From NCBI GenBank assembly GCA_008632985.1, contig QPGO01000236.1, positions 62,001 through 103,230 of the forward strand: a DNA stretch of 41,230 nt. The letters are read 5' to 3'. The translations under genes and the position numbers were made by a program. The notes under the pieces are model-generated. The model had not been told where the DNA came from and did no database searches. It worked only from the letters and a program-made list of their open reading frames with translations. Of the stretch, positions 3,551 to 41,230 are shown piece by piece. The DNA is from Psammoneis japonica (taxonomy: Eukaryota). Position 1 is the first letter of the stretch. Each line of letters opens with the position of its first letter.

Positions 3551-4295
3551 CATCAGAGTGCACGAAATGTCAAAAATGTGCAGATTTGCACAATGATGAT
3601 TTGTCGAAATGTTGCAAAAAATTGTTGTCACACAATGACAGGCCAACCTCTGGTCACAAGTTTGCCACACCAGCGTTGCAACAACTTGTTGAGAATTGTG
3701 CACGCCATTTTTCACTGTGCCCACATCACTGCATCTGCCTCATCAGAGGCCGCAATGTGGTGTTGTTCACTTTCCTTTGGAAAATTTGGAACATTTATTT
3801 TGACAATTGTGTGCAAAAATTAGTGACAGTTCATTTGTTTTTTGACAGTCAATTTGCATTTGTTGTTGCCATTTTATGTTGGCAATTGTCGCCGTTTTGT
3901 TTTGCTTTTAAGTTGCCAAAGAATTTCAATGAGCCCTTCATTGTTGAGTGATGCTTTTTGTTTTGATTAATTTTTCACATGTTTGTGGAATCGTCAACTT
4001 TGACAGTGCTTTTCAACAGCTTCACCGCAGCCTTGCATCACCACAGACAATGGCATTTCTCCCTCGCCCCAGTCGGCCATGCAGTTGCCCAGAGGAACAC
4101 TGTCTCATTGTTTCCACCTGCACGCTCCAGTTGTCCAGTCAATGGGCCCCTGCCTGCATTTTGGTGCCTTTTCTACATGCGCAGTTCTCTGCCCATTTCA
4201 CAACAGCACACCCTCTCCCCAAAATGCTTTTGATGAGAGGGTGCACTGTTGTGAATCCTGTGCATTCTACGTGAATCGGCAACTGACTGTTGGCC

Positions 4296-7200
4296 ATGGC
4301 GTCCAACGACTTTGCCCCGTCTGACGACGAGGTCGACCCTGACCCTTCTTTCCAAATTGCCGAGGACTTAAATTTTGATGAAATGGAACATTTCACCAAC
4401 GGTTTCGGATTCAAATTGTTCCAACCCAAGCTCAAAAGCACAATTGCAATGCGTGCCTTGAAAAAGAAGTTTTTGGAGTTGACGAATTGGACCCCCTCTC
4501 CAGAATTCCTCGCTCTTCCCTTCCTTTGTCACAAGCCGAAGTTACGCCGTGTTCCTTGTGTTGCCAAAGTTGTCTGCACCAATGACATTGTAAGGAAAAC
4601 CCTTGGCTGTCCCGACATTTGGTCCCACATCATGACTCGTGGTTGGTCCATTGAGAAATCCCGCCGTGCGAAAGGCGAATGTGTCCTGTGACACAAAAAT
4701 CTCAAGGAGGCTCTGCATTTCTCCAAAACATCCGGAGAGACAGAAAAAGAACAGCGCAACCATGTGCTTCTTCACCGCAACATCCAGGCGATGGTAGAAT
4801 TTGTTCACACGATCGTTGCCGGAGACAACCCAAACAATCCTTTATCCGGTGAGCCTTGTTTCCGATTTTTGCGGTGCAAAAGTCTCCAAAGTTTGATCAA
4901 CGATCGAGCCCAAGACCTCCACAGTGCCCATTTTGTCACTGACATTGTCATGCGTTGCGTTCAGCACAAGCCCAAGGACATGGACTGTTGGTTCTTGAAG
5001 ATTTTCCGTCACGTCAAAGCCCAAAAGGAATGGTGCCTCTTTGTCAATGGCTTTCTGGTTGCATGCAATGCCAACGATCCTGGTGCCCAGGCAGATGAGA
5101 TCAAGGGGTTCCTTGACGACTCAACCGGTGACATGAAGAACACGGTGACAATGCAAGGCGATTCCCTTGCACGCCGTGAGGCTTGTGAAGAAAAAATCAA
5201 TTCCATGTTGAATCACGAATTTGGGAAGCGTTGTCCCAAGGAGCAAATTGGCATCCAACCTGGGTGCAGCAAGCAGCTCACAATGCTCCATTGCAGAATG
5301 CGTGATCAGAGGGCCGACTGCTTGGAAGACGATGACAAACAAATCTACAACTCTGGGACCAAACGCAAAATTGGGAGGACCCGCAAGGATGGCACCTGTT
5401 TGTACGATGGCAAGAACCCCCCCCACCTCCCGCCTTCTGCCTTTCCGCCTGCATCTGTCGCCTCAATGTCTCTTCTCACACCCCATGATTGTTCACGACC
5501 CACCAGAGCCTTCCTTGACCATTCCCAACAAGAAGGCCAAGCCTGCATCTCGCAACAAACAAGCCCCTCCATCGCTTTCTGGTGATGTTCCGTCATCCAG
5601 GGAGGCACACCGGACTCTCACCGCCAACCTTCCGTCACTCTCAGAAATTGTGGAAAACCTAAAACCTGCTTCTACCTCCAAAGGTCCTTCATCCAAACCT
5701 CATTCCTCTCCTCCTTCTGTTTCAGCCAATCCTCCCGTGGTTGCGTCTCCTCCCAGTGACCCTGACGACATGTTGTGGCTGGACCTGTCCACACTCCGTG
5801 ATCGCTTTGACCCATCCAAGTGTCAACCCGTCACCACTGAGGAAGTTTCTTCTCATTTGTCACACCTGCACATCATTGACAAAGCCACCGACACTGATTG
5901 GGTGCTTCATCATTCTGCCGCCAACTTTCACCTGGCGGACAACTTGCGGGAAAACTGGCACACGTTCTCAAACAATGCGCCATCATGTGATTCCGCCACC
6001 GCATCTCGTGTTCAAACCAAGTGCCCTCCCAACCTCGATCACTTCTCCGAGGAACTCTCTGTCGCCCGTCAGGCTAACTCTCTGTACAAGGGGCACTTCG
6101 GGTGCCTTCGTGTGTGCATTCCTGCCCTTCTTCTGTTTATTTTGTTGAAGGGAGAGTCCGATTTGACACGTGACGGACCGGCTGCAGTTCAAAATGGCAA
6201 AGCACGCAGGACAAAGTTTGGTTGTGCTGGGAGAGCGCATCACCCCAAGACGCCTGGTTCTGCCAAACTGGCCAAACCAAAGGCTGCTTGCGGACTTGAT
6301 GTCTTTGAGTCTGATGACAACTTTGATGCCAACGAGACCTCTAAAATTCAAGGCGATGGCAGCCGACATCCTCGACTCGATTCAGCTTTGCGAAAATGAG
6401 GTAGAGCTGAAAAAACTGAGCAATCCACCACCATTTAACTGGTCACTTCGGTGCGAGGAATGCTCGCAAAAGTTGGGCAACGAAATGGGCTGTCTCTTCT
6501 TCAAACGTGAGGACGTTGCCATGCAGGGATTGTGCATTTCCCGGGGTCAAGTCTGTGATGGTCACTGTGACAATAAAAACTGCACCTGGCGTTGACACAG
6601 GAAGACAGCTGCCGGTTGCTTCTTTGTCATGGATGCCTTTGGCAATGTCTGGTCCTTCAAGGTTGTTGCCAACAGCAGAAGGACCATTGGTGAATGCCAC
6701 GATGACCAGTGCGACATGAAGCCTGTGCTTGCTCGCATGCACCACAATCGAGCTCAGCTTGATTTTGCACTTAAAGACTTGGACTTGCAGCACGATGGTC
6801 CCACCCACCCCGATGTGTCACTTTCCAGCATTGCATTCAAGCATCTTTCCCTTGACGACAACAGGCCGTGGGACAATGTTCTTGTTGGTGGAGGTGGCGA
6901 CTCTTCGTGTGTCGAGGTGCACATGGATCGACTCAAGTTCCCGACTTTCCCAGTCAGGGACTTCCACTTGTCTGCCCCAGTCACAGTGATCTGCCATTTC
7001 AAGAACATTGTGCGCCGATCGGGTCCCGACCCAAAACGAGTCATTTGTTTGGCGATCCATGCTGGTTGTCCCACCGGATGTCACCGATTTTACTGCATGG
7101 GGGACAAGCATCTTCCCAACCTTTGTTGCGAAGGTGCTGACCCGTTTGTCAACTTTGCCGATTGCTTGCAGAACACATTTGGGGTGCCACACGGTGACCC

Positions 7201-9279
7201 ACAGGTGGGTGGGATCAGCCCTGCCAATTTGATGTACGAGAAATTTTGCGATGCATTTCTAGACCCTTGTCACGTCGGAACCGCGAATGACCTGGTTGAT
7301 GCAATGGTGGAAGAAATCTGTGCTGCACTTCTCTGGATAAACAACAATGTCGACACCAACGAGTTCTGTCCCAACTTAATGGAACAATGGTGCAAGGCAG
7401 CGTGTGATGCTTGGGAAGACCGGGGAGCAGATTTCAGTGAGATTCGTCTCATGTTGGTGCTGCAATGTCTGGTGCTGGCAGGTGTTGCAGTGAAAGACCA
7501 TCCAAGACTCAACAACATTGTCCATCCTGTCTTCAACTCGGGAGCTGCCGCACAACTGGGGCATGTTCAACCGGAAGAAAGGCCGCTCATGCACCAAAGG
7601 ACATCATCCGAAACAGGAGCCGAAGAGCACGGTTGGAATGGAACCGAGCACAAACTTTGTGAGAATTCAGACAATCGCTGCACCTGTGTTTTTGATTGTG
7701 TTTTCCGAGGACCCTGTTCAGGACAAGACCTGTTTACCTTCTCTCCCTCTGGGCAGCGTCTCCGCAAGCCACATGGGTTGACCGAGTGTGAAATTTTGGA
7801 GTGTGTTGACGACAACCCCAACCTTTGCCAATCACAAGACAACACTGAATCGCGCACATTTGTGTGTGAATCAGCCGTGCAATCAGACGGTGCCAGTGTT
7901 TTCTCTGCTGTTGATGGACCACCCACGGACAATGAACTTAGCTCATTGTCATTGGAGGAGTCTAGACTCGCCGCAAACAATGAACTTAGCTCATTGTCTT
8001 CGGAGGATTGTCGATTTGACGCAGAGAAAGAACCAAGTTCATTGGATTCGGAGGAGTCTCGACTCGCCAAAGACAATGAACTCAGCTCATTGTCTTTGGA
8101 GGAGTCTGTGTTGTCGGAGGACTGCTCGTGTCCTGATTCTGACTGCCGCGTTCCAATTGTCATGGCAGATTCTGTTGTCCTTCAGTCGCAGGATCAAGAA
8201 TCCGATGAAGATGACAAAAGCAACGCAACCGCGCACGATCGACCCGAGCCACCGGTCCTTTTACAAGTGCAAGATTTTGACATGGACAAATGTGTGAATG
8301 CCATTTTTGAGCAAGTCTGTCAACAGCCGAAGAGCTCCTGCAATTGTTTGGTGTCATGTTTTTCACAAATCTCAATCCGCAACATGACTCCTCCTGTGCT
8401 TTTGTTTCACATTGTCATGTCATCCCCAGACAAGACGGAGGTGCAAATGTCCTGTGGCTTTGCATGACGAGGCCCGTCATGGCCGGAAACCTGACATTGG
8501 ATGAGACATGTTCGGACCGTGGCGTGGAGGCTGTCCAATCCACTCAGCAAAGAAGAGATGAGGCAAGGTGTCAAGTCGTTCAGGATCTCTGCACGAACTC
8601 AAATGTTCGTGTGTGCACTGTGTCCCTGCAGGATGGTGGCCCCGCTTGTCACTTGAATTGCAACATGTCCGCCAAGAATTTTGCCCAAAGGGTCAAGACG
8701 CGGTTTGGAACAGTGATTGATTTTAAGAAAAGTGGCTTCATTTAGATCTGCATGGACTGCTGCTGGATGCAAAAAGGGGAGTGGCTGCAGTCGACACTCG
8801 GAAATCGCTTCTTCGGCAAAAACCCAAGGGATGTGATGGAAACGTTGTTTCATCCAAAGCTCCAGAGGTGCCGCATCATAATCCCATGCACCATTTGGTC
8901 ACCAACCCAAACCGCGCGCAATTTGGATGACATTTTGGAGTGCGCACTGGTGCAGGCCATGACACAGGACATGGCATGTGAAACAGTGACGCTCTGCCAG
9001 GCTTCCCAGGAGATTGTGGAGGAGCACCGTGTGGATTGGCTGGGAAAACCATCTGACCAGGAAGCATTGTGTTTGGTTTCACGGAACAGGAAATTCAGGA
9101 AACGCCACCACATGAAGAAGCCAATTCAGTCCTGGAGTTCCTGCGAGAGTGTGGAAATTGCAACCCGAAGGAACCGTTCCCGTTCCTGTCCTTCGAGAGG
9201 AGAATTCCCGATTTTGGGGATGAGTCAAGGAAATGGCCTGGGAGTTATTTGCTGTGCTAGTTCCCAGTCGGATTTGTGA
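4296..9279 (+). pseudogene. Large multidomain cargo gene of element A (candidate DNA-base-modifying protein)
   Basis: Consecutive ORF pieces 4290-4691, 4764-, 5221-6399, 6170-6595, 6629-8467, 8344-8745 and 8752-9279. Collinear homology with the cargo gene of B (NGFG, PSP..AL, GWS; ILD..QLCE; HxD; SW/VW-S.KV; GAA.Q; LCE/LCD; CCWM..GEW). Confidence 0.75.
7931..8106 (+). repeat. 48-bp coding tandem repeat, about 4 copies (NELSSLSLEESRLAAN)
   Basis: Units start at 7931, 7979, 8027 and 8075. Confidence 0.9.
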
Positions 9280-9374
9280 GTAGATTGTCAAAGCAGGTGA
9301 GTGAACGTTGTCTCTGTTGTCCTTGTCGTCCCAATTAAGTTTTCTGCTGCTGTTGTCGGATGCTCACATGCTTT

Positions 9375-12300
9375 TCACCTGCTTTTGTGAAACAGCTCTC
9401 CCCATGCATTTCTGTGGTCTTGAACTGCCCAAACATGCTTTGTCCTGTCGTGTGTCTCAGCAATGCCGGGTTGCTCCTCATGCACCAACAATTTGTCGCC
9501 AACAGCATCGATGGGCACCAAGAAAAGCTTGGGTGAGTGCACTGTTTGTTCAGCAGAGGACAAGTTGTTGTTCTTCACTTGGCCCAATTGCCAGCGACCA
9601 ACCAGGTCGGTGTGTTGCATTCGTTCAACCATGGCACGCTTGTCAGGCTGGTGCATGCAAGGGTGAACGACCGCACACAAGTCTCTGTCGCTTTCCCTTT
9701 GGAAGAAACAGTGAAGTCTTGACAGGAAGCACAATTCCCCCCTGGTTGTGCCAAAGTCAACATTCGCCCAGTCGTGAACCGGTCCTTCACTGTTGCAGTC
9801 TGGGTGTGCGCGGCAAGTGTCTTTCCCATTCTTGTGGTGGAATTCGGTTTTGCAAACAAGGTTGACGGTGAGGTTGCCTCCTGCTCCAACGCATTCCCTC
9901 CACTTCTTTTGAAAGAAATGGAGCAGGACCGGGTGAACCTGACATTGTTTTTGCTTTCCGTGCCAGAGAAAGCTCGCTGCATTGTTTGTCGCACTGCAGG
10001 TGATGGCGAAGGTGCTGCCACCCAGTGTGTGACTGTCGTCACCACGTGTGACGTCCTTTCATCCAACTCTCGATGTGATCCATGGGTTGGCCGACAACGC
10101 ACGGTGCACCGTCATTTGGTCTTGCATGCGCGACGCAACCTGACCTAGGAAGATGTCAAAGCTGCATTGTTGTGCCGTGGCAGAGGGCAATTTGAAAAAA
10201 TCCTTGAGCAAAGATTCTCCAAGACCAGTGTCAAAGTTCATGGCATGACGGAAACAATGTAGAAAGATTGGAAGGTGAAGAAGCTCGTGAAGTTTTTGCA
10301 GCTTCCACCCAGCCCCTTCGTGTCTGGGGGAGCAATGTACAATGCGAGACACCAGCAACCGAATTTTCTTTGTGATTTTGGTCAGGTCAGTTGTGTCGGT
10401 CGGTGGGTCGCCGAGTCGACACCAAGCATGGAAGGCAAGCAGGTCTTCCAGCAACTGGATGCATTGCCTGACACTGCAACTGAGGGGCTTTCTCTTTTTT
10501 TTCCTTTTCCGTTGATTGTGGCTGTTGCCTTCATCCTCGGACTCGTCCGGTTGTTGTTCCACATGATCGTCTTCATCCGTTTTGTACGGATCATCTGTTC
10601 CATTGTTGGAATGATGATCGTTGCCATTGTCGCACTCTTCCGGCATGTGACAGCGATTGATTCGGAACCCAGGCATCCCACACCCTGACGGCAATGGAGG
10701 ATTGTCTTGGTCTTCCTGGAGAAAACAAGATTCGCAGACATCTCTGCCTTCCTTTGTCAGCAGCAACAAACAAAAAACAAAGGCCATCCCCGCCCAATGA
10801 TGTGAGTTGAGGTGGGTGAGTGATGTTGCCCCGCCCTTGAAATTGGTTCGTAAGAAAGAATTGCACGTGGATCGGTGATTGCCAAACATTTTTTCCACTG
10901 ATCTGTCGACCTCGCTTCTCACTGAGTTTGTCATGCTGTCGACAAAAACACCAACCTCCCTTTTTAAAGTTCCGTTTTCAAAAAGGTGCATCATGTCGCT
11001 TGCCGTGGAAATGGTTGCTCCGAACAGCTGTTCTCCGAAATCTGCATTGAGCAAGCTGCTGGTGGGCACATTGTGCTGCTTCATGTGATGAAGCTGCTGC
11101 AGCCAGTGGTTCCTTTCTTGCTCGTCAAGACTGAGATCATTTGCGTGGTTCTGGACTGACAAAATGTCACCAGCCCTGACCAGCTTGCACTCCTTCCAAG
11201 GGTTGTCAAGCTCATTGCATCCGGTCGTGCAAAACCTGGAACAACGTTGGTGACAGTTCTTGGCACCACACCTGCCCACAAGGCAGTCACCACTCTTCGC
11301 ATCTCCGTTGATCAGGACTGTTGTTGGAATGACATGAAGGAAACGCATCTCATCACTGCATCGAACGCAGCAGCAAAAGCCACCGTTTTCCATTGTGTCC
11401 AGCAGAGGCTGGAGCATTGTTGCCAACACCTTGTGACAATCCCGGATGCTTTGGCCCTTCTCCGACTTTCGAGTGTTAGATTGCTGTTTGGCGGCGGAGG
11501 AGGACATTTTTTCCAGGTCGGGAATGCAACCAAGGACACGCCACTTTGCTCTGTCATGCCATTGGTTGCAGGCAACATGAGCCGACGTAACTGTGACAGG
11601 TTCTCCGCAGGAAGACGACATGGAGGCTGTCTTCCCAGTCTTGTCAACGTGAATCATCAAACATTCAAGGAACTCTTTAAGAGGATCTGAGACCCTGGCT
11701 GTGCATGCACTTCTGCACCACTCTCCTGCCAAAACACACTTGTCGTGCTTTCCCTTTGAGACATGCATTCCGCATGGATCGGCAGTGGGGTTGGCCCATG
11801 TGCAAGCATCCAGCATGAACGATTCCCACACATCTTTGAAATTCCATCGCGGAACTCTTGCTGTTGTCTCACCGCGTTCCCCATTGACGCTTTCTAGGTT
11901 GACTGGAATCATCTCGCATTCCGGACCTGCAAAAGATTTGTGCAGGTTCTCCATCAGTTTGGTGTGGCGAGGGATTTGCGTTCCAAGATGGAAGGCACTG
12001 CCACAGTGTCTTTTGATGAACTCGGCGATCTTGTCGCACAGGTGAAGCGGTGCTCTGCAGTTGTCTAAGAGCTTGCACAGCTCTGCACAAGCACTGTTGA
12101 GGTTGCTGAGAGATGGCATGCGCGCAAAGGCATCTTCGGATGGGCTGCGGTGCACCTCACCCAATCGGCTGTCTTCACTCCGCGAATCATCTTCGTCCAA
12201 GCTGTTTGATTCGTCAGGATTTGTAACTTCAGAGCCCTCCATTGTGACATCTGGCAGTGCGTCAAACGAGTCATCTGGTGACAAGCTGGCTTCGGAAGAC

Positions 12301-12758
12301 AAGTCCAGGGACATGTCATGAATTTCCTCATGATGGGATCGCGACCCAAGAGCGGAAATGTCATCATCAAACGGTGGTGACCATGGTTCATCGCTTCTGT
12401 CATTTTCGTTGTCAGTGGACCCAAGCCCAATGTTCGCTGCGGACGCACCTTGTCTGGACCGCCTCAGCCATGGCTGTGACGCGTCATCTGATGAGGAGGA
12501 AATGTCGAGATCAACTGACCCACATCTGCGAGAGAATTTGTTGCTGGCGTTGGAAGATTTAGCCACAACCCTTGCTGACAACTCTGGCATTGGGCAGTTT
12601 GTGACTGCATCGCGACGTGACAAGTTGGGCATCTCTTGAGCAAACAAAAAACACAGTGGGTCATGATGGAAATGGGTGAGCATCCGTTTGAAGGATCGTT
12701 TGCAACGGGGACATGCCACCACACCACCCCCACCCTGCCAACCACCATTTCCTTCCAT
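9375..12758 (-). pseudogene. Plavaka-like transposase of element A (hypermutated, frameshifted C-terminus)
   Basis: 899-aa ORF 10059-12758. N-terminal CPRC..H..C zinc finger, then IHVDKTG, VLGCIPD, RDCHKVL, GDAKSGD, DMMHLFENG and KLHELLH. Downstream pieces CRAHPDCNSEGPVHDW and LVPIDAVGDKLLVHEE. Only one Tyr in 899 aa. Confidence 0.8.
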
Positions 12759-13055
12759 TTGTCATTGCAGCAGGTTTGTGGGCTGCCCAAACACATGTGT
12801 GTTTGAATGGCAGCACCAGCTCAGTTCTTGAAAAGTGAAACAGTTTGGGCGGCAAGGAAGGAAAACATGACATGAATTGGCGCGAAAACATGGGTGCATT
12901 GTGTTCTTCCCATCAATGAAAACATTGACAGGTGAGAATGAATCGAACGCGTTGCGATGATTGATGACTTTGAGCATGAACAACTGACTGCAAATGTTGT
13001 TTTTCTGCGGAAAGGAAAAAATGAGTTGTGACGTGATGAGCCGTGATGCGTTGCA

Positions 13056-14533
13056 GTGAGAAGTCCAGGAGGGGCGCACCCACACCCACTGCAGCACCAG
13101 ACACAAACGTTGCAATCAACAATGAACGCTGTTGTGCAAAATGACCGCTTGACGGCACATTGGCCAAATGACCACTGGAGGAGATTTGAAAGTTTGACAA
13201 TCATGACGGCAGATGGAAGGCGACAAATCATGGAATCGGAGCAGAAGGCGGCTTTTGATGAATTGGGTTGTTTGATGCAAAGTTCACCACAAGGCAGGAT
13301 GGTGCATTCTGATGACACGGGTGTGGCTTTGATCGAGTTTGAGAGCGGTGCACATGCGGTTGACCCGTGCCTGCGCCGTGACGCAATGGACCTGCAACGC
13401 ATGATGAATGAGGACAACATCGAAGGGAGGTGGCGGGAACTGTGGAAAGAGAGGTGCAACCACATGGTTTGGCTGCACGAACATGTGAGTGATTGGAGCA
13501 CAGAAGTGATTGAGCACATGCACGCCAGCACAGGCAGGATCTGAATTCATGACAACCTGAACTGGTTGAATGGCGTCGTCAACCGTGGGATCAATGCTCG
13601 CCATTGCCCGGAGCATTGGGGCTGCATCGCGACTCACCAAGACAGGCAAGGAAGGATGTGCTGTGTCTGCAGCACTCTGCACAATGAAGGAGAGAAAGAG
13701 CTGAGGGATGAATTTGCAGTGGGTGCGTGTGATGATGCAAAACCAGTCATTGACAGGGGAGACGTTTGAGATTGAGACGGAATTCGAGCGTCAGCATGCC
13801 GACCTGTGGCATGGACGAGACAGGCACTTGTGGACCGTTGGGAGAAACATCGGCAAGGGGAGGCACACACGGACTTGCAATGGACAAGAAGGGAATTGTT
13901 TGCGATGCATTAAAACTGGCGAAGTGGTTCCAGCGTGACATCGTGCGAGACAACCATGAAAGACTTTGGTTCTGTGAGCAAATGGAGTTCTTCAGGTTGT
14001 CTCCACGGACAGTCAATGAATGGATGCTGGACATCATCTGGAAGGAGGATGGTGAGCGGGAGAAATTTCAAAGCAGGAGAAAGGAAAAGCGTTGGGTGGA
14101 GAGACGTTGTCGCATTGAAGTTGACGAATTCGTGAGAATGGTCGGAGCGGAGACGAGGGCTTTCACCCACATGACTGACTGTTCCGACATCGGGCGACAC
14201 ATCAAGTTGAGAGTTACAAAGTTAGAGGGTGATGATGAGTTGGGCCAGAGAAAACGATTTGGCACCAAAAAGGATGGATGTGCTCAGGCCCCAACAGCAA
14301 ACCGGAACAACGTCAAAGCAGGTGAGGGGTTTGTTCATTGCAGTAAAAACAACTTTCACAGGTGCACGTTTCACAATGATGTTTTGAACAAAATGCTTTT
14401 GCAAGCAATTTGCACTGTGGAAGTGGATTTCGAAATTGCAGCAAAAGAGAGGTTTGAACTGGAATTCGCAATGATTCAAAATTTTCACAAGATTGCACGG
14501 AGTGGTGAAATGGATGAATTGTGTGCACATTAA
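13056..14533 (+). pseudogene. Extra uncharacterised gene specific to element A
   Basis: Same-strand ORF run 13056-13544, 13566-13769 and 13766-14533 with protein-like composition, broken by stops and a frameshift. No counterpart in B or C. Confidence 0.5.
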
Positions 14534-14686
14534 AAGATTTGGTTGATTCTCAATTGTGTTGCATTTGAGAAAAAGGAATCATTGATGGTGACTGTGAGAT
14601 TTTTGGTGTTAAAGAGAGGTTTGAAAATTTTCCAACGGCGAAAACAACTGGGACACAAGGCATGGAGCCACCCACAATTGGCGACA

Positions 14687-18600: not shown

Positions 18601-21600
18601 GTGGCTGTCATTGCGCTTCAATGGAGACAATGTCCTGCATTTTGATGGCAAATGAAGAGCACAACATCCACTGCAAATGCCAGATAAAAAATCAAAATGC
18701 AGACACGTCACACCCATGAGAATCATCCAAATCTGGAAGACAATGTAATGTTTGCCAATTTCCCGCCATTTTTGCCTGTTGTTCTTCCTTTCCCTTCTCA
18801 TCCACAAGACAAGGACGACAAGCATGAGTCTTGATGAAGGCCCTGTCAATGTTGTCTGATTGACAATGGATGGAAACCCTCTTCTCTGTCCTGGGTGTGG
18901 CAAAAGTTTTTTGTGAATGGCCTGCCATTGGAGATGCTCGCCAATGTGTCACTCAGTTGCCCAAGAGTTGCAAACCCAAGATCAAATCCCAGATCAAAGC
19001 GACATTCCTGCCACAATGGAGGGGCTGCCCAAAGAAAGCGTGGTTCTTCCTCTTCGTCCTCTGATGATGATGAATCCCATCCGAGGCGACATGCTCGCAG
19101 CAGATTCCCAAGATCTTCAACGAGTGATCTGAGCAGCAGCCCCTTGTTCCCCTCCCGGATGATGCACCGCACAGAATGGACGACATGTCCTCTGTTTCAT
19201 CAAACCACAGCATGCATGGAGTTGAGCTTTCAGCAATGAACGATTTGGATGTTGGCGGTGGTCAATCCTTTGCTGCAGTGTTGGACATGACAATGGAGGA
19301 GGAAGAGGACATTCACGATGAGGATCAACGTTTGGGGATCAGGCATCACGCTCCTGCAGAAGAGGCCTTGGCTTCCACTCCCTCTTTGACAAATCTTGAC
19401 GGAGCTTGCGCAGAGTTGTGCAAGAAGCTCATGGACACATGTGGTGCTCCCCTGGAATTGTGCGATTGCATTGTTGATTTCATTGAGAGGCACACTGGGA
19501 ACAGCGACATTGAGCTTGGTGCAGTTCTGCCAAGGAGAAAAGAGTTGATGCGCACCTCAACTGAGCACTTCCCTCTTCCACCCAGCGAGTCCATTCCTGT
19601 CACTCTAGAAACCAAAAATTTCAAAACCGGTTTGCCAAAACGAGTGTCAGTGCCAAGATGGGATTTCACAAAGGTTTGGGAACAGTTTTTGCTCAATCCT
19701 CACCTGTGGCGCAGCAGAGAGAATGTGGCTGATCCAGACAATCCTTTTTTGGAAGCACAAAGTGAAGGGACCGGGCGACAAGTGCCTTTTGGCGGGTGAG
19801 TGGCACAGGCACAGTCGCGAAGAATGGACAACTGACCCGGAGAAACAATTTCTCGAGTGCAATGTCATTTGCCTCGACAAGACTGGCAGGACACAAGGGA
19901 TGGGATCACATTGTGGAGAACCAGTGATCATGACCTCTGCGCATGTTGCCTTCAACAAATGGTCTGACAAGAGTGTCTGGAAACCAATTGGTTGTCTCCC
20001 TGATTTGGAAAAGATGTCATCATCTGCGGCAAGGAATCTCTCAAACAATTGCAAGGCGGAGAAGGGACGCTCGTCAAGAGACTGCCACACTTGCTTGCGT
20101 GTTGTTTTGGAGCCACTTTTGGAAGTCATGAGAAAAGGAGGCATGAAAACATGCGTGCGATGAGGGGATGAGATGCGACACCTCCGCGCAATCCCGCTGA
20201 TTGTTCTGATCACAGGAGATGCAAAAAGCGGCAACTGCGGAGGTCACAACTGTCGCCAATGTTGCTGTCGTTTTTGCCCCATTGGCTTCAACAAACTGGA
20301 CGACCCATGGATTGAATGCGAGTTCATCCGAGGACTGGATCTCCAACAAGTGCAAACTGAGGCCAACAACGACAACAGATCAGACCAAGAAAGGAAGCAC
20401 TGGCTGGGCATCTTGCATCACCTCAAGCAACACAACGCACCTGCCAACTGTCTTTTTGAGGCAGACTTTGGTGCACAACCACATGGCATTGCCCTTGCAA
20501 CAGCAAGCAACATGATGCATCTCTTTGAAAACGGCACCTTGAAAAGGGCAATCAATTCATTTGTGGACAGCATGACACCTGTGGTCGCAAGTGAGGTGGA
20601 CAGCACAGTGGAAAGGATTTTCAGCAATCACCGGTCAACTTGCAAAGCATCCTTTTTGCGAACAAACTTCAAAGGAGGAGCAACGTCACTTGCCTTCCTC
20701 AACTCTCACCACTGGGCTGGAATGGCTTTTGTTTTCCACCTTCTCCTGTCAACCAGCGAGGGACGAAATGCATGTGAGTCATGCTTCCTTGACGAGGACG
20801 CAGACGAACCCATTGTTCCAGAGAATCGCAAGACACCCAAAGCAAACTTTGAGAGTTGCTGCCAACATGGTGAGTGCTTGGACTCTGACGATGAAAGGTC
20901 GGAGGAGTCCGAAGAGGGTGGCTGGGACGAAAATGAGGATGAGAAAGAGGAGAGTGAGGCAGAGGATGGTGACGACAACCAAAAAAAGAAAAAATGCAAG
21001 GGAAAAAGACTCAGCTGCAGCGCCCGGCAATTCATTCAATTGCTTGAGGATCTTCTTGTCTTCCATGCATGGTGCAGGCTGGGCGATCCACCCATCACAA
21101 GCGCAACTCCCAGTTCATCCATTCAGAAAACAAACACGAAAATCCGTCTCCTCATTGACTGGATGTTGCAATTCATCGCGCGAACAGAAGGATGCAGGTG
21201 GAAGCTTCAAAAGCTTCATGAAACACTCCATCTCTTGGTGTTTCTTTGTCATTGCCAACACGCAATGAACTTTGATGCAGGCTTGGGGGAACGCCTCTTG
21301 AAAGACTTTTTCAAGCTGCCATTGTCTGCCACACAACAATGCAACCTTGATGGTTTTCTGAAGCAGGTCGTGTCGCGTGTGGAGGAGGACAGTGCATTTT
21401 GCCAACTGGGAAAAAGGAAACATCAAGAGTCTGGATGGACAATCACACGCTGGGAGGAAGTGCGTTCACTCTCACCTGCAGCTGAGGGATTGGTGCTGTG
21501 ACGTTTGAGTGGACAGCTTGCGCGCTCGTTGCCAAGTTCATCCTGTGTCACTGAACTTCATGTCAGAAAAGTGGGAGGATTGTGTTGGTGAAGACAATGA

Positions 21601-21732
21601 AAACACACGTCTGACTTGCAAGACAGAGTTTTGCCATGCAAGTGGGAGGGATGCGCACCGTGCGCACCCCAGTTGCAAAAGCGAAGGCCCATGGCATGAC
21701 TGTGCCTGTGTGACCTTTGGCACACGAAAGGG

Positions 21733-22178
21733 TGCAGCATGCATGCAGACAAAAGGTCATTTTGTCACGCCCTTTGTGACATTTAAAGGCTGCAACACGT
21801 CGCCGTGATGCATTGGCTCTTGTTGGCAGCTGTGTGTTGCACTCCTCCCCATGTGTCACGCGTCCATGCGGCTCTTTGCTGACGTGTGCTGACACTGCAC
21901 GGTTTTGGCAGAACAGTGTGGGTGCGTGCGAAGGAACACACAGAACTGCACAGAGTTTTGCGCGTTCGACAGTGATCAACGTTGCTGCAGACAACTCCCA
22001 CTCAGGTTTCGAACCCCTGGCCTCCTGCCCAATGGTTGCGAGATGAACCACTCCACCATGAATTCACAACGCAGCATGCATGCAGACAAAAGGTTATTTT
22101 GTCACGCCCTTTGTGACATTTAAAGGCTGCAACACGTCGCCGTGATACATTGACTCTCATTGGCAGCTGCACATTGCA
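21733..22178 (-). mobile_element. TRIM-like miniature LTR retroelement (109-bp LTRs)
   Basis: Direct repeats 21733-21841 and 22070-22178 with TG...CA-type ends and AGGG duplicated on both flanks. Purine tract GGGGAGGAG (21850-21842) abuts the 3' LTR. Excision restores GTRKGDQQFP in frame. Confidence 0.85.
21995..22065 (-). promoter_or_regulatory. tRNA-like Pol III promoter (A box and B box) inside the TRIM
   Basis: TGGTGGAGTGG (22058-22048) and GGTTCGAAACC (22015-22005) at tRNA-like spacing. No clean cloverleaf. Confidence 0.6.
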
Positions 22179-22558
22179 AGGGCGATCAACAGTTTCCCTC
22201 CCGTTTGCTGTGTTTCTTCGAACAGGAAGACACAGGATCAATTTTTGCAGCGGCCCATCCAGCTGCTTGTCAAGCTGACCAGAGAACTGTGGGGCAACGG
22301 CATCAGCACACAAACTTGGTCAGTCGCTGGCAGCTTGATCACAAACAAAACAACTGGCTTTCAATGCCTGAGAAGACTCAGCACTCGCCTGAGTTGCGGG
22401 TTGTCCCCATCAAAGCAATTGGGGACAATGTTTTGGTTCACGAAGAATGTCCAGGAGCAGCAGAAGCGCAAGAAAAGGCCCCATTTGTTTGGGCTGCACA
22501 GGACAGAAGGAAGTGTTGGTCAGATTTGTTTCTAAAATGGGGTGCGCGCATCAATCTG

Positions 22559-25500
22559 TCATTCACTCACAGTGATTTCCCAACTCTTTCTTGCAAACAT
22601 GATGAGTTTGATCCTTTCAGAATTGGCAAAGTCATTGTGGTGCACGTGAAGCAGTGCGGCGTGAGCACCTTCCATTGCTTTTGTTCTGATGTCTTCTTCT
22701 GAAACTCCAAGATGAGCTTCTTCCTGATCGGAAGGCTTTCCCAACCACCGTTCTCGTTGTTCTTGGGTTGTAAGGTTGCTTGCAAAGAACACACTCGCAC
22801 GGCTCTTTGCAGCATCATTGTCCATTGTGCATGTGTCGAACACAGCCGATGATTTCTTCCATTGTTTGACAACCTGGAAGAAGGTTGTGAGAGCAAAGGG
22901 AATCACTGTGTCCCCCCCTTCTCCGTTTTTGGAGAGCAAGGCCCAAAGATCAATTAGATTCTGGAAAAATTGAGTCGTCCCAAAACGAGAATTGTGCCAC
23001 TCTCCATCTGGCATCCAGCAGCAGCCCAACATGATTTGGTCGAACCCATGATCATCAAAATCAACAATTTTCTCAAACTGCTGCTTGACTCTCTTGACGA
23101 AATCTCTTGCTTTCACATTGCAATTTAAGTGCAGATCAGGATGGCCATCTTAGAGAGAAACTGTTGGAACGACGTTTGTGGTTGTTTTGTTGGTTTCCTC
23201 AAATGCCATTGTGTGTGCCTTGTCTTGCCTGTGTTGGTCGGACGACCCTGAGGCCACCCCCTTCTCAGAGCACAATTCTTGAGAAGATGGATGCCTTGCA
23301 TTGAGCAGACGGGTCATCCCCAACCACAGCACATTGTGTGTTTCCCCATTGGTTTCGTCACTTGCGAAACAATCTCCCAAGTCACCATGGTCCTCTTCAC
23401 CCTCGGAGCATTGTGCAACTTGGTTGTGCTCATCATCAATGGGCTCTTTGCTTTTGTCCTCTTCACCCATGCAAGCAGTTGGAAGTTTGCTTGTGTTCTC
23501 GTCAATTGACCCCTCCTCGCAATCGCCAATTTTGTTCATTGCAAATGACAACAAATCACCGGCGGCCTTCTTCCTGTTAGAATGAGAATTCAATGTGACA
23601 ATGTCAGTGAAATCAGACAAAAAACAAATGTGGTTGCCATGAAAAAATGACCTCTCTTTGCCGTTCCAGTTCGGCTCGAACTTCATCAATTGACACGAAT
23701 GGGACTGGCTCCCATCCATGCCTTCCAAACCACTTGATCGTTGATTGCCCATCAGAGAACAAGAGCAACAGATGCTGTCCGCAACAAAAGACATCGCAGA
23801 TTCCCATCTTTTATGAGCTGCACTCAGGTCACACAGCAAAGACGCTGGACCATTCTTTCCACAGTCTTCCAAATCAAAATCACCCACTGTCCGTTCCAAG
23901 AGTGAATCGCGCTCCTCCACCGGGACCTTCATTTCCTCCATTTGCTTTGCCGCTCCCAACTTGGCTGCCGGATGGACAAGATTGCGAAGGTCAGGGTGAG
24001 CATGGATCCCCGTGCCACACAGCATCAACATCTGTGCAGAGTTCATGCATCTGAACTCTCCATGGTCAGCGCCTGTGTGATCCCATGTTTGGACCACGGT
24101 TTTAAACACATCCTCGAACGCCTTGTGGTCAAACGTTGGCTTGCCAACATTGTCCTTGATCCAGTCCATGACAACAACCAGTCCGCCAACAAGCAAGTCC
24201 ATCAAACCATTGAGTTTCATCCCGCACTCTGCCACACGAACCTCCTCGAAATCGAGTCCCGGGCTCTGCATGCGTCGGTTGTTGCGATCCCCCGCAATGC
24301 TGCCGAGTGGCCTTGCAGCTTCTCTGAAGCAATGAAGGACACGATCTCCAGCCATGAAAGGGCACTTCGCAGCATCTGTGTTGCACAACAAGCAGTGAAA
24401 ATGGGAGAATCCGGTTTGACACCCAGCCACAATGGCGCAACAAAAGCAATCGCACACACCAACCTCGTCGATGTTGTCGATGATTGCCGAACAACCGCAC
24501 GAGAAATTAAAGTCCTTCACGATGGCAAACGTAAGACGTTTCCTTGGCATGACAATGACGGGATGCTCAACTGTGTTGGACGGAAGATTTGGCTTGTCAA
24601 TTTCCTCTTCCACCCACACAGAGTGAGGGTCAAGGAAAAAATCTTTGATGTTTCTGTGGGTTGGCTTGCCCGACGGAGGATGACAAGGGCCATGGCATCT
24701 CATCATTTCTGCAGCATGTGACAGATCAAGTTTTGCGAAATGACCATGCACACGCAATCGGAACTTGGCATGCCCATGTGCCGAGCTGACATGGTTTCCA
24801 GCATTGCCTTTGGATGCAGTGATGACCTTCAACGACCAAGAGCGACCAACAGCATCTCGCAGTGATGAGCAAAGAGCACCAGTCTTGGTGCACCCATCCA
24901 TGTCACAATCTTCTTTGTCAATGTGAAGCTCAGTGTTTGAATCAACGGATTTTTTGCCGGACGATGAGATGCACTTCAGACGCGTTCCAGATGTGGGTGG
25001 AAATCCGTGTGACATTGGGCCCGTAGACTTCTACGTGCGAGCTCCACAGCAAAATCATGCGGCAATTAAAATGTCAATGATCGCCAACAGAAAATGAGGC
25101 AATTTTGCGAACGCACAAACTCGCCCATGATTGAAGTGCATCATTTTTTACTTGGCCAGTTGCATTCTTCAGACATTGAAGAATGCAACTGGCGCATTGT
25201 TGTTTCTGCAAACTTGTCACACAAAACGTCTGGGGCTTCGCAAAACAGTGAGTCTGGACAATTTTTTTTAAACATCACACATGGAAAGCTACGTGCGAAA
25301 CATGCGACGGATGACAAAAATCATTTGTGTCACACGTCAGTGCTGCGAGCTCCCACCTGGGGCTGGAACGCGTCTTCACTTGAATTTCCACGCCTTCTCT
25401 TCTAAAATGCTTGGCTCCAACCATCTCATGGAGCTCAGCTGCGAAAAGACCATCACGGTGCGGGTCATGGAAGGAACGCATTTCTTTCAAAGCAACAAGA

Positions 25501-27498
25501 TTGATTTTGTCCTCGCAGAGTTGCGCGGCGTCCAAGATTGAGGCTGTCATCAGCTGCACATCCTTTGGAAGCTTCTCCCACTTGTCCCTGCCAAAGATGG
25601 CACCAGGCTTGTGAGTGGGTCCCACTTCAGCTAACTCACCGTCTGCGACTTCGCAATTCTGGCCACAACAACCAAAACAGATCCGACAATGCAACTTGCA
25701 TTCTGGTCCATCCCTTTTTTCGTTTGGCTTGCCATGTTCCAACACTGCACAGAGTGTCAACGACACACTGAGCTGCAATCCAAAAAAGTGTTTCTGATGC
25801 ATCTTGTCCGTGTGTCGCAAATGAGTGACCACGTTGGAAAAATGAGAGGTTGGCTGGGTCGGGCAAGCAATTGCAACCATCAATTCTTGCGTCGGATTGT
25901 TGGGAGCCAAGCCGTTTTCAAATCCATGCACAAACTTGCGGAGTTGATTCACCAAGCAGAAATCGGAGATGCTGTGGAACAACTGGTGCTTGACACAGCT
26001 CCCCTCAAAGGAACCGGCAATGGGGGTTTCCTCAAAGACGACAAGGTGAGAATGTTGTGACTTCACCTCACCCGGAATTGCAAACGGAGATGGTTCAGGA
26101 AACACTTTCACAAGCTCTTCTTTTGTGAAATTGTCTGGCGGAGGAGGAGGTGACTGATGAGTCATGCCGAGGGTCGGCCACTTTGTTCGGGAATGTTCAA
26201 ATTGTTCCTCGAGAGTCGGCACATCTTGGAGAATCAGCGATTTGTTCTGAGAAACATCAGAAGGTTCATCATCTTTGGGGTTTTTGAGACTGGGGCTTGA
26301 GGAGCAAAGGGAGGCAGCTGAAGAGGTGGCAAGAAGAACAGAAGAATTGGAGACAAGAAGAGGAGGACAAACAACCAATCAAACAATGTGATGGATTCAC
26401 ACCATTTGGATTTTTTTGTTTCCGAGCATTTTTCGTAACAGATGGAACTGCATTGCAGATTTCTTTCTTCTTGCACTGAGTGGCAAAGTCATGAAGCCTG
26501 GCTTTCCACACAGCCTCAAAACGATCCCTTGTGGCCTTGCTTTTGCCGGAATCGTCAGCGGCAGAAACCACACGATCAATTTTCACACATCTTAAAAGAG
26601 TCTCATCGACATGTGTTGCGCGCATTTGTTCTCGCTCGACATCAAGCATCGCTGGTCGCATGGGCTTTGCCCAAGAATTTTTGTGTTGGTGGAACAATGA
26701 CTTCACGAATTCAGGGAAGGACATGGGGCGTTCGTCTTTGGTCGTCTCACAGAGACCAAGAGCCAGGAAATTCTCCAAAAAGTTGATGCAAGTCGATGTC
26801 TCATCACATTCGCCGAACAGGGAGCAAAGCCAATGATCGTCATCACCATTCCTTTCAGGTGCATGCGGTGGAATCTTGTCACAAAGAATCAAAAAACCAA
26901 TGTGAAGGCATTGCGCGCAATGCAAAACCTTCCCTTCAAAACTTCTCAGCTCAGTGTGCTTGACAAGTGGCTCTGCCTTTGGGTTGCACAATCCGGGATC
27001 ATGGAGAAGCTTGCACAACATGGAAATCTTTGCCATCATGTTGGTTGTGATGTCTGTTGATTTTGCCTTGTCGCCGACGACTTTCACATCCTCCACTTTG
27101 GGAGCACGGCGATGCTCCAACGCATGAGGATGTTTGGCGCCTTGACTGGAATGACTCCATCCTTTTGTGGAAAGAAAGTGCAGCAAGCTCTTGCACCCAA
27201 GTTCCTTTGCAACAATGCGGTTCACAGCCATTGGCTCTACAAAAAAATGAGGTCTGCCCTTTGACTTTTGCCACATGTGGGCAAGCGCGATCCAATTTGG
27301 AGAGGGATCACAAGTGGAATCGCAGTGGAACTGAACCTTGGATTTCACCGTCTCGATTGTCGCTTTGACGCGGCTCCGCTCGTTGCTGTCAATCACTCCA
27401 AAACCATTGGCAAAGAGAGATTCAAATGCGGCCTCCTCGAGGTGGGAACCGTTGTTGTCTTGCGACAGAGAGGCAACCGATGGGTCATGTGGCGCCAT
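22559..27498 (-). pseudogene. Large multidomain cargo gene of element B, split by a MITE
   Basis: ORFs 26269-27720 (from MAPHDP), 25275-26378, 23150-25015 and 22559-23116. Removing the MITE plus one TTCA joins EIQVK to CISSSGKK in frame. Paralogous to 4296-9279. Confidence 0.78.
24979..25374 (+). mobile_element. 396-bp MITE, copy 1
   Basis: 12-bp TIR GACGCGTTCCAG / CTGGAACGCGTC with TTCA duplicated on both sides. Interrupts a reading frame. Confidence 0.92.
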
Positions 27499-27735
27499 GG
27501 TTGCTGTTCCAACACCAAAAAATCTGGTTTCTGCAGAAATGTGCCAGAGTGGTGCATGGGAGAAGTCACATGTGCGCCTGGTGGGATTTGGAGTTTTAAA
27601 CACAAAAACCCACCAGACGTGCGTGCAACTTCTCAAGGGGAAATCCTGCGTGAGATCACACCGGGAAAGGGCAATGCGAAGTGCAGAATTGATGAAAGAA
27701 AACACTGTGCATGACAGCATCAGGAGAAAGGGTGT

Positions 27736-28305
27736 GTGTGCTGGAAAACAACATGGATTTCTGCATGTGCGTCAAGGTGCGTGAAGAACACATGGGTGCC
27801 TTCAAGTGACGCATGCGAACAATCACAAAGAAACATTCAGAAATGGAGATGGCACAGAGAGAAGTCAGAAACATGGATCCAAAACAAAGTGACACACAAC
27901 AGAAAAAAAAAACAACAACAAGAGACGATGAAGGTGACGGCAACGGGATTGATGAAAAAGAGGGATTCAGATGGAAAGACGCCGGAGATGGTGAAAACAG
28001 GTGGTGCAAAAATGAAGAAGGAAGAGAAAAACAGGACGGGCAAAATGAAGAAAGAGAAAAAGAAGCCAACAACACGACGTCAAGAGGGGAGCAGCGATGC
28101 GATTTGGCATTTTGAGGGGCCTCTTCCTCTGGATGATGTTCACCCAAATGCAAGACATGCAGTGTGGCTTTTTTGGGACGGTGACGAGGAAACATCCAAC
28201 GCAGCAGCGGCACATTTGGAGTTCTTGCAAGAGAGCGGACAAGACATGTGGAATGAAGAGGACGATGTGGACGACCAGGCAAATTGGAGCACAGTTGTTG
28301 ATTGA
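27736..28305 (+). pseudogene. Small subterminal ORF of element B (Lys/Glu-rich; second copy at ~32850-33374 minus)
   Basis: WHFEGPLPLDDVHPNARHAVWLFWDGDEE is conserved in the element C copy. Function unknown. Confidence 0.4.
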
Positions 28306-30569
28306 ACAACCAGTGCACACTTCACATGATGAAAATTGCATTGCATGCAATTGCAATGTTTGGCTTCCAGTTAAAGATCGTTGGTTGTTGTGAAAAAGGC
28401 AGAGCACAAAAATTAAAAAACATCTGTGTTCAAACATGAAGAACAGCAGGAGATCAATGGTCAACTAAATGACAAAAACTGTCATGTGCAGACAAGCAGG
28501 TTTTATGATGCAGCAGTGCATTTTTGTCATGCGTGCAGATGTTACGATGTTGTGCACTCTGATGATCCAAAAGCACATGAAGTGTGCATGTCAGGAAATG
28601 CCCCTTCTGCCGACTGTTCCAGTTGTCTTTCACATCTGTCAATTGTGCCCTTGTGCCCGCATTGTTGCCCTCCATCTTGGTGTGTGTGAGCAATGCATGC
28701 AGCCCGAGTGCGTGTTCCTTGGCAACAAAGGATGCGCCGCCATTGCTCAAACTTGGTTTGCTGCAATCACGGCAGAGCTCATGAGCCGGGAGCACCTTTC
28801 CAAATTTTGCAGGTTGATGTGTGACCACGTGGGGTGTCACTGTGTGTGGCACAATGTTGCAATTCTGCGCAAGCACCCGTGGGATTGTCCTGTGTGAGAG
28901 TGTGGTGGTGTGCCAACCTCCTCGGGCACTTTGGGACGTCAGGCAGTTGCGCCAATGACAGAGAAACCAAAAGGCATCGGAGGGGATGCTCTGTTGTGTC
29001 CATGTCTGGGGGAGCGGCACCGTCATGGTGTCGCATCTCTTTGCATTTCTTTCCCTGATGTCAGTGTGTTTTCTACGTTAAATTCTGTGTGATTCAGCAG
29101 TTTTCAAGTCAGTTGTTTCAGCGCAAATTTCATGTGCAATTCTGCGCGTTTGGCCAGAATTTCGAGTCGACGACCGTGCAAGGTTTGTCCTCTTGTTCTT
29201 CTCACCAACACACTTCCTTTGAGTTTTCTTTCCAATGTGCTGCAACATGTGATGGACATTCTACGGTGCTGCAAAGTGGGTTGTCACAAGTCTTCCAAGT
29301 GGTTTGCAGTTCCAAGTCTCGGCGTTGCTTCTTCATGCTCTTCGATGTTGCAACTTCAGCACACAATTTCTGTGCAATTCTGTGCATGACAGAAATTTCA
29401 TCCAACAGCTCCGATCATCATTTCCTTTTCCTTCGTTGGGGTCTGTGTTGGACTTTCTTGGGTGTTTTTCATCCCAGGAATCTCTCTCACATCTCTTCAA
29501 GCATGTCATCTTTGGAGACAGACACGTGTTCAGTTTTTCTGCAGTGTTCATTTTGGTGTCTCCCAAGTGGTGTGGCTGGGCTTGTCCATTCTTCGAGGCA
29601 CAGCAACTGTGGCTGCCGTGTGACAAGCATCCGGTCAGCTGCCATTCTGACTTAAAACAAACAGCCTCTTTCTGATGGTGCATTGATGGCATTGCCTTCA
29701 GACGATGTGTCAATGGCACTGTCTTTCTGACAATGTTCAATGGTGTTTAAATTGTCCCTGCTGCCCCATGTGGGTGCTGGGGAACGTGGGTCTGCCATGG
29801 TTGGTGTTGGTGTGGGCGGCAGCGAGGCAGCGGTAAAATGGATTTTGAGTTTTTTTTGTGTGTGTGGCACAATGTTGAGTGATTTGCTGGAAAGCCCATG
29901 TGCACTCTGCAAAGTCCCCACATGGTTCTTGTCGGAGACAGGCGCCAGTGGGTTGCAATCTGGGCTGCAGATCTTTTCATTGTTGGCATGCCTTTGGTTG
30001 ACATCTGGTTGACTGAGAGGACACATGGCTGCAACATCATGGTTTCTTGCACAAGTCACCCCCGCCAACAGAGAGATGACCACCGGACTGATGTCTGCAT
30101 TGACCCTGTGGAAGTGATGGCCCATGTCTGCTCCCTTTTTATTTGTTCTTTTGACAACTCATCAGTTTTTCCCAATCTTTGTTGGTGATTTCATCCAGTT
30201 TGCAGGGGCACCTTTCGACAGGGGACATGATGGTGGCTTCAATTTCTTGAAGCATCCACCATCTGATTTCACATCCCCCATCAGATTCTTTGGCACTGTT
30301 GCATCCTCCACGATCACTTTGCCACAAATGACCCTGAAAATGGTGTGCACCTGCTCCACTGTCAATTCTTTGTCAATCGGTGAGATTCTGTTGTGCGCTG
30401 CTGCCACACACCCCAGACTGCCCATCTCTTGAAATGTCAAGGTTCCCTCCAAATTTCCAATTGCACATTCTTCGCCGATTGGGTCTTTCATCATTGCCCT
30501 GTTGTCATGGTTGACAGCTTTGTGGAATCTCAGTGCCTGTTTGTTGTTCAGCAACTCTTGTCATGCAGG

Positions 30570-30820
30570 TGCGAAATGGAGATGGCGTCGTCTCCATTTT
30601 TCACAACACGCTGTGTTGGACAGACATTGTCACGCCGGCCGCATGATCAATGTGGGCACGTGTGAATTTTTCCAAACAAACTTGGTGCCGGACAGACCGT
30701 GCAAAATGATTGATGCGGGCACGTGTCAATTTTTCCAAACAAACTTGGTGCCAGACAGACCATGCGAAATGGAGACGGCATCGTCTCCATCTCGCATGAC
30801 ACACAATGTCAGACAGACAC
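30570..30820. repeat. Two 63-bp tandem units bracketed by two copies of a hairpin-containing repeat
   Basis: Units at 30643 and 30706. Hairpins ATGGAGATGGCGTCGTCTCCAT (30576-30597) and ATGGAGACGGCATCGTCTCCAT (30769-30790). Confidence 0.85.
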
Positions 30821-41212: not shown

Positions 41213-41230
41213 TTTGATGCCATTTTTGCC

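Follow-up and report, generated by a model that had tools for sequence, protein, structure and literature searches.

Nested Plavaka-like transposons in the diatom Psammoneis japonica, with conserved ends, a conserved accessory gene and a variable cargo slot

We analysed 41,230 nucleotides (hereafter the window) of the genome of the diatom Psammoneis japonica (assembly GCA_008632985.1, contig QPGO01000236.1, positions 62,001 to 103,230), in which an earlier reading of the letters alone, here called the original prediction, had placed a family of multigene Plavaka-like DNA transposons. As can be seen from the list below, the window holds three elements, A, B and C; A and B each carry an accessory gene, a transposase gene that diverges from it, and a cargo region convergent with the transposase. 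Gene models are stop-to-stop frames, TIR stands for terminal inverted repeat, ORF for open reading frame and HSP for high-scoring segment pair; P numbers denote related proteins and L numbers metagenome loci.

3551-3740, plus strand: left arm of B (accessory-side end), with the TIR CATCAGAGTGCAC at 3551-3563; 89% identical to the reverse complement of C 37541-37731
3741-16373, minus strand: element A, 12,633 bp, Plavaka-type, inverted in B, with CATCAGAG at 3741-3748 and CTCTGATG at 16366-16373
4296-7825, plus strand: A cargo gene of the HxD family, about 1,100 amino acids (aa) in three frames (tblastn); intact relatives end at about 7790
8311-9276, plus strand: fourth ORF of A, with one in-frame stop; 35% identical over 191 aa to B
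9384-12761, minus strand: A transposase, 1,126 codons with a single in-frame stop (codon 901); one tblastn HSP to P0007 residues 132-1151
13754-16099, plus strand: A accessory region, divergent from the transposase; core at 14732-15690 (tblastn to B and C)
16376-28564, plus strand: right arm of B, with the TIR GTGCACTCTGATG at 28552-28564
16980-17716, minus strand: conserved core of the B accessory gene (tblastn to A)
19179-22537, plus strand: B transposase, in several broken frames (tblastn)
22562-27498, minus strand: convergent cargo region of B, with the fourth ORF at 22562-23313 and the HxD cargo gene at 23720-27414
32175-37731, minus strand: element C, 5,557 bp, an internal-deletion derivative of B with a TG target duplication (self-alignment)

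The stretch 3551-28564 is a single Plavaka-type element, B, split at 3740/16376 by the inverted 12,633-bp element A. Indeed, self-alignment showed that the B parts 3551-3741 and 16377-28564 are colinear with the reverse complement of C (32175-37731), at 84-100% identity per piece, and because these parts lie on both sides of A, A (3741-16373) is an insertion inside B. The coordinates of the original prediction (3551..28564) take in both elements but do not spell out the nesting. An alternative delimitation, with A spanning 3551-16373, was rejected on account of this nesting, shown by the self-alignment and by the empty site in C. A is flanked by CT at 3739-3740 (the last two bases of the B left arm, which form its target site) and at 16374-16375, and the unoccupied site is visible in C as a single CT. 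C itself is flanked by TG at 32173-32174 and 37732-37733. The 2-bp target duplications foreseen for A (CT) and C (TG) were thus confirmed, with the empty site of A in addition.

All three elements open with CATCAGAG and close with CTCTGATG. The window contains 11 copies of CATCAGAG, where 100 shuffles gave 2.78 on average and 8 at most; six of the 11 are element ends (3551+, 3741+, 16373-, 28564-, 32175+ and 37731-). The TIR of B is a perfect 13 bp (CATCAGAGTGCAC), and that of A is 8 bp, followed by AATGTGGTG at one end versus AACACAGTG at the other. Without A, B measures 12,379 bp, with a 92-N gap (18284-18375) counted in; multigene elements of 11-13 kb with defined ends, as had been proposed, are therefore what the window contains, with 12,633 bp for A, 12,379 bp for B and shared 8-bp ends. 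A segment of 0.6-0.7 kb in the accessory region of B is duplicated around the N run (17260-17953 and 17980-18601, 91-99.6% identity) and is present once in C; it is probably a scaffolding artefact or a haplotype duplication.

C retains both ends and the accessory gene, but two blocks of B are missing from it, 19119-22301 with most of the transposase and 22574-27518 with most of the cargo. About 1 kb of C (33594-34648) has no nucleotide match to A or B; at this deletion junction it is either filler DNA or what is left of a cargo that has diverged strongly. Contigs derived from the reads of one run, possibly the assembly's own source, contain joints at 18849>22276 (depth 889), 6132>13689 and 9668>15437, which point to further internal-deletion derivatives like C. 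On positions 3300-23299 lie 8,632 read-contig pieces at 88% identity or more; their summed depth runs from about 1,000 in the interior of A to 36,000 at B 21309-22642, though contig depth is uncalibrated and gives no copy number.

We compared A and B at both levels. As DNA they align over only about 290 bp, at 75-83% identity. When the A ORFs were searched against B by tblastn, the hits were colinear in inverted order: the cargo of A (4296-9105, plus) on B 27498-22679 (minus) at about 28-43% identity depending on the piece; the transposase (12365-9384, minus) on B 19179-22537 (plus) at 56% over 555 aa; and the accessory gene (14732-15568, plus) on B 17716-16980 (minus) at 45% over 106 aa and 37% over 100 aa. 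Accessory gene, divergent transposase and convergent cargo thus keep the same order and orientation in two strongly diverged elements, as had been claimed from the letters. The convergent cargo of about 5 kb stood in its position and orientation but not as one gene, because the cargo of intact relatives stops at about A 7790; the region is really a gene of about 3.5 kb plus a fourth ORF (A 8311-9276).

On the A cargo gene, P0162 matches 4389-5363, 5779-6321 and 6350-7777, and P0006 matches 6205-7825 at 53% (both by tblastn). Two read contigs lack one base at 6347, and this would join two of the frames. The cargo region of B is broken by an insert of about 400 bp, at 24978-25375, that resembles a miniature inverted-repeat transposable element (MITE). 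The fourth ORF is conserved between A and B only. Its sole Pfam match, PIN_10, was not significant (E 0.044) and was dropped. Atlas hints of XPG/FEN1-like families (scores 0.82-0.85) were not borne out and were dropped too. Between the end of the A cargo and the fourth ORF, three to four 48-bp tandem repeats (...NELSSLS.EES...) occupy 7928-8107; the repeat number differs in one read contig (joint 8107>8044).

The transposases connect these elements to Plavaka through their relatives. Among the 22 window ORFs scanned the sole Pfam match is PF18759, on the B piece 19609-20163 (E 0.0015, 18.3 bits); the A transposase ORF and its two closest intact relatives gave none at E<=1. The A ORF aligns over 1,038 aa to P0007, and P0007 scores 28.4 bits against PF18759 (cut-off 26.3). 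When a profile was built from A, B and these two relatives, it matched 2,871 representative proteins (E<=0.001), 492 of them at E<=1e-30. From the 150 matches listed, 38 relatives, mostly full-length, were picked for a Pfam scan; 23 of them matched PF18759 at E<=0.001, and 20 were at or over the cut-off. The closest Atlas clusters bear PF18759, and one Atlas cluster is labelled Bacillariophyta. In the transposase trees, A and B are sisters within a clade of L001-L006, L009 and L014/L002; viral contigs contained no relative of the transposase or the cargo.

An HxxxH motif (H838/H842 of P0004) and the residues D389, D502 and E862, catalytic candidates by conservation, are kept in A, B and six relatives; no consistent C(2)C motif was identified. 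The transposase had been called a zinc-finger protein. This held for A, which has a CxxC..H..C motif at its N-terminus, and for one of 13 relatives checked, but the motif was not found in B.

The ends tell the same story. The termini of PlavakaB are CATCA..TGATG with target duplications of 2 or 3 bp in the part of Kojima 2025 (PMC12730594) that describes the group. A, B and C all have CATCA..TGATG, the 8-bp end recurs in 13 metagenome loci and bounds L019 on either side, and the duplications are CT (A), TG (C) and AC (L019). By transposase relatives, termini and 2-bp duplications alike, the affinity to Plavaka and the wider CMC group that had been proposed was upheld. We considered whether the elements are EnSpm/CACTA proper or another CMCT lineage, the Plavaka label being an artefact of weak profile matches. 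The window copies do stay under the Pfam threshold, and passages of Kojima 2025 (PMC12730594) report some fungal families that are Plavaka-like in transposase yet classed as EnSpm by termini and duplications. EnSpm/CACTA ends are CAC(TA)..(TA)GTG with 3-bp duplications, however, whereas the ends here are CATCAGAG and the duplications 2 bp; 20 intact relatives reach the PF18759 gathering score, and the Atlas neighbours are Plavaka clusters. We thus regard an EnSpm identity as very unlikely.

The copies in the window are all dead, through erasure of TA to TG or CA (turning Tyr into Cys or His) and not through decay of the frames. Over the whole window, element flanks included (1-41230), TpA is at 0.07 of expectation (174 TA), and TG and CA are at 1.6. 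Between repeat copies the commonest dinucleotide mismatch is TG versus CA (115 cases), and TA versus TG or CA accounts for 44; this ratio corresponds to a TA loss of about 91% per copy, in agreement with the depletion of the window. The A transposase has one Tyr, versus 31 in intact relatives, and at 18 columns with Tyr in at least three of six intact relatives it reads Cys in 10, His in three and Tyr in none. That the Pfam scores stay below threshold could plausibly be due to missing Tyr and other codons that contain TA. The read contigs are equally TA-poor (53% of sampled words present; 2,136 pieces at least 99% alike) and differ mainly by transitions, paired CA/TG swaps among them, and the metagenome loci have normal TA content, at 0.43-0.82 of expectation. 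A 2026 preprint on Bigelowiella natans reports hypermutation restricted to TpA. In the window CpG is at 0.59 of expectation, and of the remaining 174 TA, 49 are in TTAA and 14 cluster at 35727-35893.

It had also been suggested that the TIR of A extends if TATA is restored. In L055, an intact but distant relative, the homologous end has the sequence GCCGCAATAT, which argues for TA at the first of the two positions. An ancestral TATA in the TIR of A would fit the TA erasure, but is supported at only one position of two.

A scan of metagenomes with the transposase alignment yielded 66 loci (383 kb in total). They contain 34 copies of CATCAGAG, versus about 11.7 expected under a uniform model; in 13 loci a copy upstream of the accessory gene marks the outer edge. 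Inward of this boundary L011 and L012 are identical at 100 of 100 positions, and outward at 29 of 100. An 8-mer search found a complete element of 12,237 bp in L019 (53-12289), which has both ends and an AC target duplication, and CATCA/TGATG pairs with extended TIRs scored at chance level only in the metagenome contigs.

The accessory protein was found by phmmer in 19 of the metagenome loci, with 34 of 34 matches on the strand opposite the transposase (minus). For a hidden Markov model (HMM) 30 loci were informative, with at least 1.5 kb upstream, and in 21 of these it placed the gene upstream, on the strand opposite the transposase; 12 of the 21 had helped to build the model, and the transposases of the positive loci are 23-45% identical to A. 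These observations support the accessory gene as a stable part of the element across a wide marine and environmental lineage. Pfam, PHROG, NCBIfam and Protein Data Bank (PDB) profile searches returned nothing significant for this protein, the A/B cargo and the fourth ORF, nor did Foldseek against PDB for the accessory protein. As it accompanies the transposase nearly throughout, the accessory gene is a candidate for a second protein of transposition.

The cargo and accessory ORFs could in principle be host genes or chance captures by the transposase, with no role in the element: no known domain links either protein to transposition, and the cargo content differs between sub-lineages. Yet in A as in B both genes are enclosed by the TIRs, in one and the same order, the place and strand of the accessory gene are kept across 21 loci, and the non-autonomous C retains it. 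Four separate contexts (A, B, L002+L014 and L055) show the HxD cargo linked with a transposase of this lineage. Mere capture is, to our judgement, extremely improbable.

The cargo behaves differently from the accessory gene. In 16 of the 18 examined loci with at least 1.8 kb downstream of the transposase, a convergent ORF of at least 180 aa follows it (stop-to-stop). Among the metagenome loci an HMM of the A/B cargo matches only L014 (convergent, E 1.5e-250) and L055 (E 3e-82), and in L055 the HxD cargo is upstream of the transposase, on the same strand. L002 and L014 overlap at 100% over 902 bp, and joined they show accessory gene, transposase and convergent HxD cargo as arranged in A and B. 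Within the A/B transposase clade, the convergent gene is of one unrelated kind in L003 and L006 and of another in L004+L005. In L036, L038 and L039 the convergent gene has clear sequence similarity to an endonuclease III-type HhH-GPD domain (HhH-GPD at E 3e-10 to 1e-8, TIGR01083 at E 3e-24, PDB 1p59 at E 8e-19).

Because close relatives (L003/L006 and L004+L005) carry unrelated genes in the slot, we read the cargo from these sequences as a recurrent, exchangeable module, whose position is kept and whose content differs between sub-lineages. The expectation that accessory gene and cargo are both stable functional parts therefore held for the accessory gene (21 of 30 loci), but the A/B cargo is not fixed and the content of the slot varies. 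It could instead be that all the convergent genes descend from one ancestral cargo that diverged past recognition, each with a DNA-glycosylase-type core, with no independent replacement. The cargo does evolve faster than the transposase (about 28-43% versus 56% between A and B), slot position, strand and size are kept in the same 16 of 18 loci, and a glycosylase-type fold is hinted at in the A/B cargo and clear in the L036 type. However, the transposase of L055 is only about 26% identical to A and its HxD cargo is still detectable (E 2e-36 to L014, besides the HMM match), whereas the closer L003, L006 and L005 (36-41% to A) show none. Hhalign between the cargo clusters gave no links, the best probability being 8.5%, from shallow alignments. 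Since distant L055 keeps a recognizable HxD cargo and closer relatives carry unrelated genes, replacement of the cargo appears the more likely course, and we hold a single diverged ancestral cargo to be rather unlikely.

The motif and the predicted fold hint at what the A/B cargo may do. Its family comprises P0006, P0156-P0162, L014 and L055, one relative being labelled Attheya sp. by its source. The HxD motif is kept in all nine aligned sequences that cover it. The structure model of P0006 (predicted local distance difference test, pLDDT, 70.6; predicted template modelling score, pTM, 0.66) weakly resembles TET and a phage thymidine-hypermodification transferase. From the model we infer, with moderate confidence at best, a TET/JBP-like oxygenase module followed by a base-flipping module of DNA-glycosylase fold. 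Given the endonuclease III-type gene in L036/L038/L039, the cargo model with its HxD motif, and the parallels with fungal TET/JBP and the red-algal PAG genes, the slot most plausibly holds enzymes that act on DNA bases, as putative counter-silencing factors.

Taken together, we consider with a probability of roughly 0.8 that the window holds three dead copies of one Plavaka lineage with PlavakaB-like ends, whose nesting, partner gene and modular cargo form one explanation. B (about 12 kb) landed first. A (12.6 kb), from a diverged sister family, then entered the accessory-side arm of B with a 2-bp CT duplication, and C is a non-autonomous deletion derivative of B. A full element consists of CATCAGAG, about 3 kb with the accessory gene, a putative DDE transposase of about 1,130 aa on the other strand, one or two convergent cargo genes and CTCTGATG. 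The transposase would cut at the CATCA ends and paste by a 2-bp staggered cut. The all-helical accessory protein may be a DNA-binding cofactor or a regulator of transposition, like TnpA beside TnpD, and the cargo may act on DNA bases against silencing, in parallel to the TET/JBP of fungal Plavaka.

Several observations weigh against this explanation. The window transposases fall below the PF18759 cut-off of 26.3 (the B fragment has 18.3 bits and A no match), and 15 of the 38 scanned relatives have no match to the family. The flanks of B are unmatched (CC versus AT), with no target duplication at its ends, nor had the original prediction claimed one for B; no metagenome contig besides L019 holds both ends; and the enrichment of subterminal motifs is weak, about 4-fold for GTGCAC. 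Nine of the 30 informative loci are without an upstream accessory match (L017, L019, L020, L022, L043, L046, L047, L049 and L055), although an ORF of L019 still groups with the accessory family by blastp and in L055 the gene is downstream instead. As for the A/B cargo, it has no Pfam, NCBIfam or PHROG match, a PDB profile search found nothing significant, Foldseek with the model found nothing in PDB or BFVD at E<=0.001, the model drops to pLDDT <50 at the HxD loop, and a conserved distal His could not be identified in the cargo alignment.

A bolder version sees a three-module platform of transposase, DNA-binding partner and swappable slot for base enzymes, with the A/B cargo as a new eukaryotic family that fuses a TET/JBP-like oxygenase to a homologue of the thymidine-hypermodification transferase. 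We think this doubtful. If it were true, the cargo could write a modified thymine (via 5-hydroxymethyluracil) or process 5-methylcytosine in the element's own DNA and so escape silencing. A further, speculative extension would trace the T-to-C changes at TpA, by which TA has been erased from exactly these repeat blocks, to oxidized thymine produced in cis. The likeness to the phage enzyme PUGT (PaMx11 gp46, PDB 8z2m/8z2n; described in part of PMC11472151) and to TET/JBP lies in the conserved HxD motif; there is no similarity at the level of sequence, the distal His was not identified in the A/B cargo, and, unlike PUGT, this cargo is eukaryotic and transposon-borne. No conserved Walker A motif, sought as a sign of a kinase partner for the hypermodification pathway, was found.

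The working analogy for the accessory gene is En/Spm (CACTA), which makes TnpA and TnpD from one alternatively spliced transcript and has CACTA termini and 3-bp duplications. The likeness is that of a transposase with a second element-encoded protein; here, in contrast, there are two divergent genes, and the termini and the duplication length differ.

Compared with PlavakaB of Agaricomycotina, as far as the passages of PMC12730594 on that group go, the elements share the CATCA..TGATG ends with 2-3 bp duplications, a DDE transposase with H(3-4)H before the last E (here by candidate residues), and, putatively here, DNA-modifying cargo (TET/JBP in some fungal members). They differ in that the host is a diatom and not a fungus, the end is conserved over 8 bp (CATCAGAG), those passages describe nothing like the conserved divergent accessory gene, and the cargo belongs to another, unannotated and modular family. 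The giant Plavaka of the red alga Bostrychia moritziana, in the sections of bioRxiv 10.1101/2025.02.11.637652 that describe it, is likewise a large multigene algal element (17-19 kb, versus 12-13 kb here) with accessory genes, PAG1-3, whose presumed targets are DNA or chromatin; a putative 2OG oxygenase domain is described for PAG3, and the PAG genes move from one transposon family to another. The elements here have a different number and order of genes, and the signature of PAG2 (PF01555 N6-adenine methylase plus PF00856 SET) was not found by Pfam in 22 + 12 A/B ORFs. A 2026 paper on Spirogyra extends Plavaka to Archaeplastida, with no mention of stramenopiles in the passage concerned. A literature search found no description of Plavaka in diatoms in the text it returned, the one diatom-linked Plavaka passage concerning a green alga.

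Plavaka elements with cargo have been published from fungi (TET/JBP), and a preprint describes them in red algae (PAG1-3). The present analysis adds the complete anatomy of a widespread environmental lineage and the nesting, an 8-bp end that is conserved over deep divergence, an accessory gene that spans the lineage, and a cargo slot that is modular. Counter-silencing by DNA repair or modification enzymes borne on transposons becomes testable beyond fungi and plants, and intact sequences for experiments are provided by L014, L019, L036, L044 and P0162.

In L055 (739-13479), cargo, transposase and accessory gene are on one strand, the transposase being inverted relative to A and B, and cargo and transposase are separated by an extra minus-strand ORF of 589 aa (5764-7530). 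The flanks of the elements in the window (1-3550, 28565-32174 and 37732-41230) contain 18 ORFs with no Pfam family. Two more CTCTGATG sites outside A, B and C, at 1050-1057 and 41080-41087 (minus strand), could be ends of further elements that extend beyond the window. A 124-bp inverted repeat (85%) at 2794-2917 and 38030-38153 lies outside the homologous ends of B and C, 634 and 299 bp away, and may be another small repeat family or a preferred target.

The MITE-like element of about 400 bp that breaks the B cargo region (24978-25375) also occurs at 32435-32836 and 35527-35952, with 13-bp TIRs (AGACGCGTTCCAG) and an internal palindrome; partial copies are at 35429-35528 and 41137-41218. A copy in C is flanked by TG/TG, and the empty site in B reads CA, which suggests that the original duplication was TA. 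The copy at 35527-35952 carries 27 bp of inverted flank of the 32.8-kb copy and therefore looks like an inverted duplication within C.

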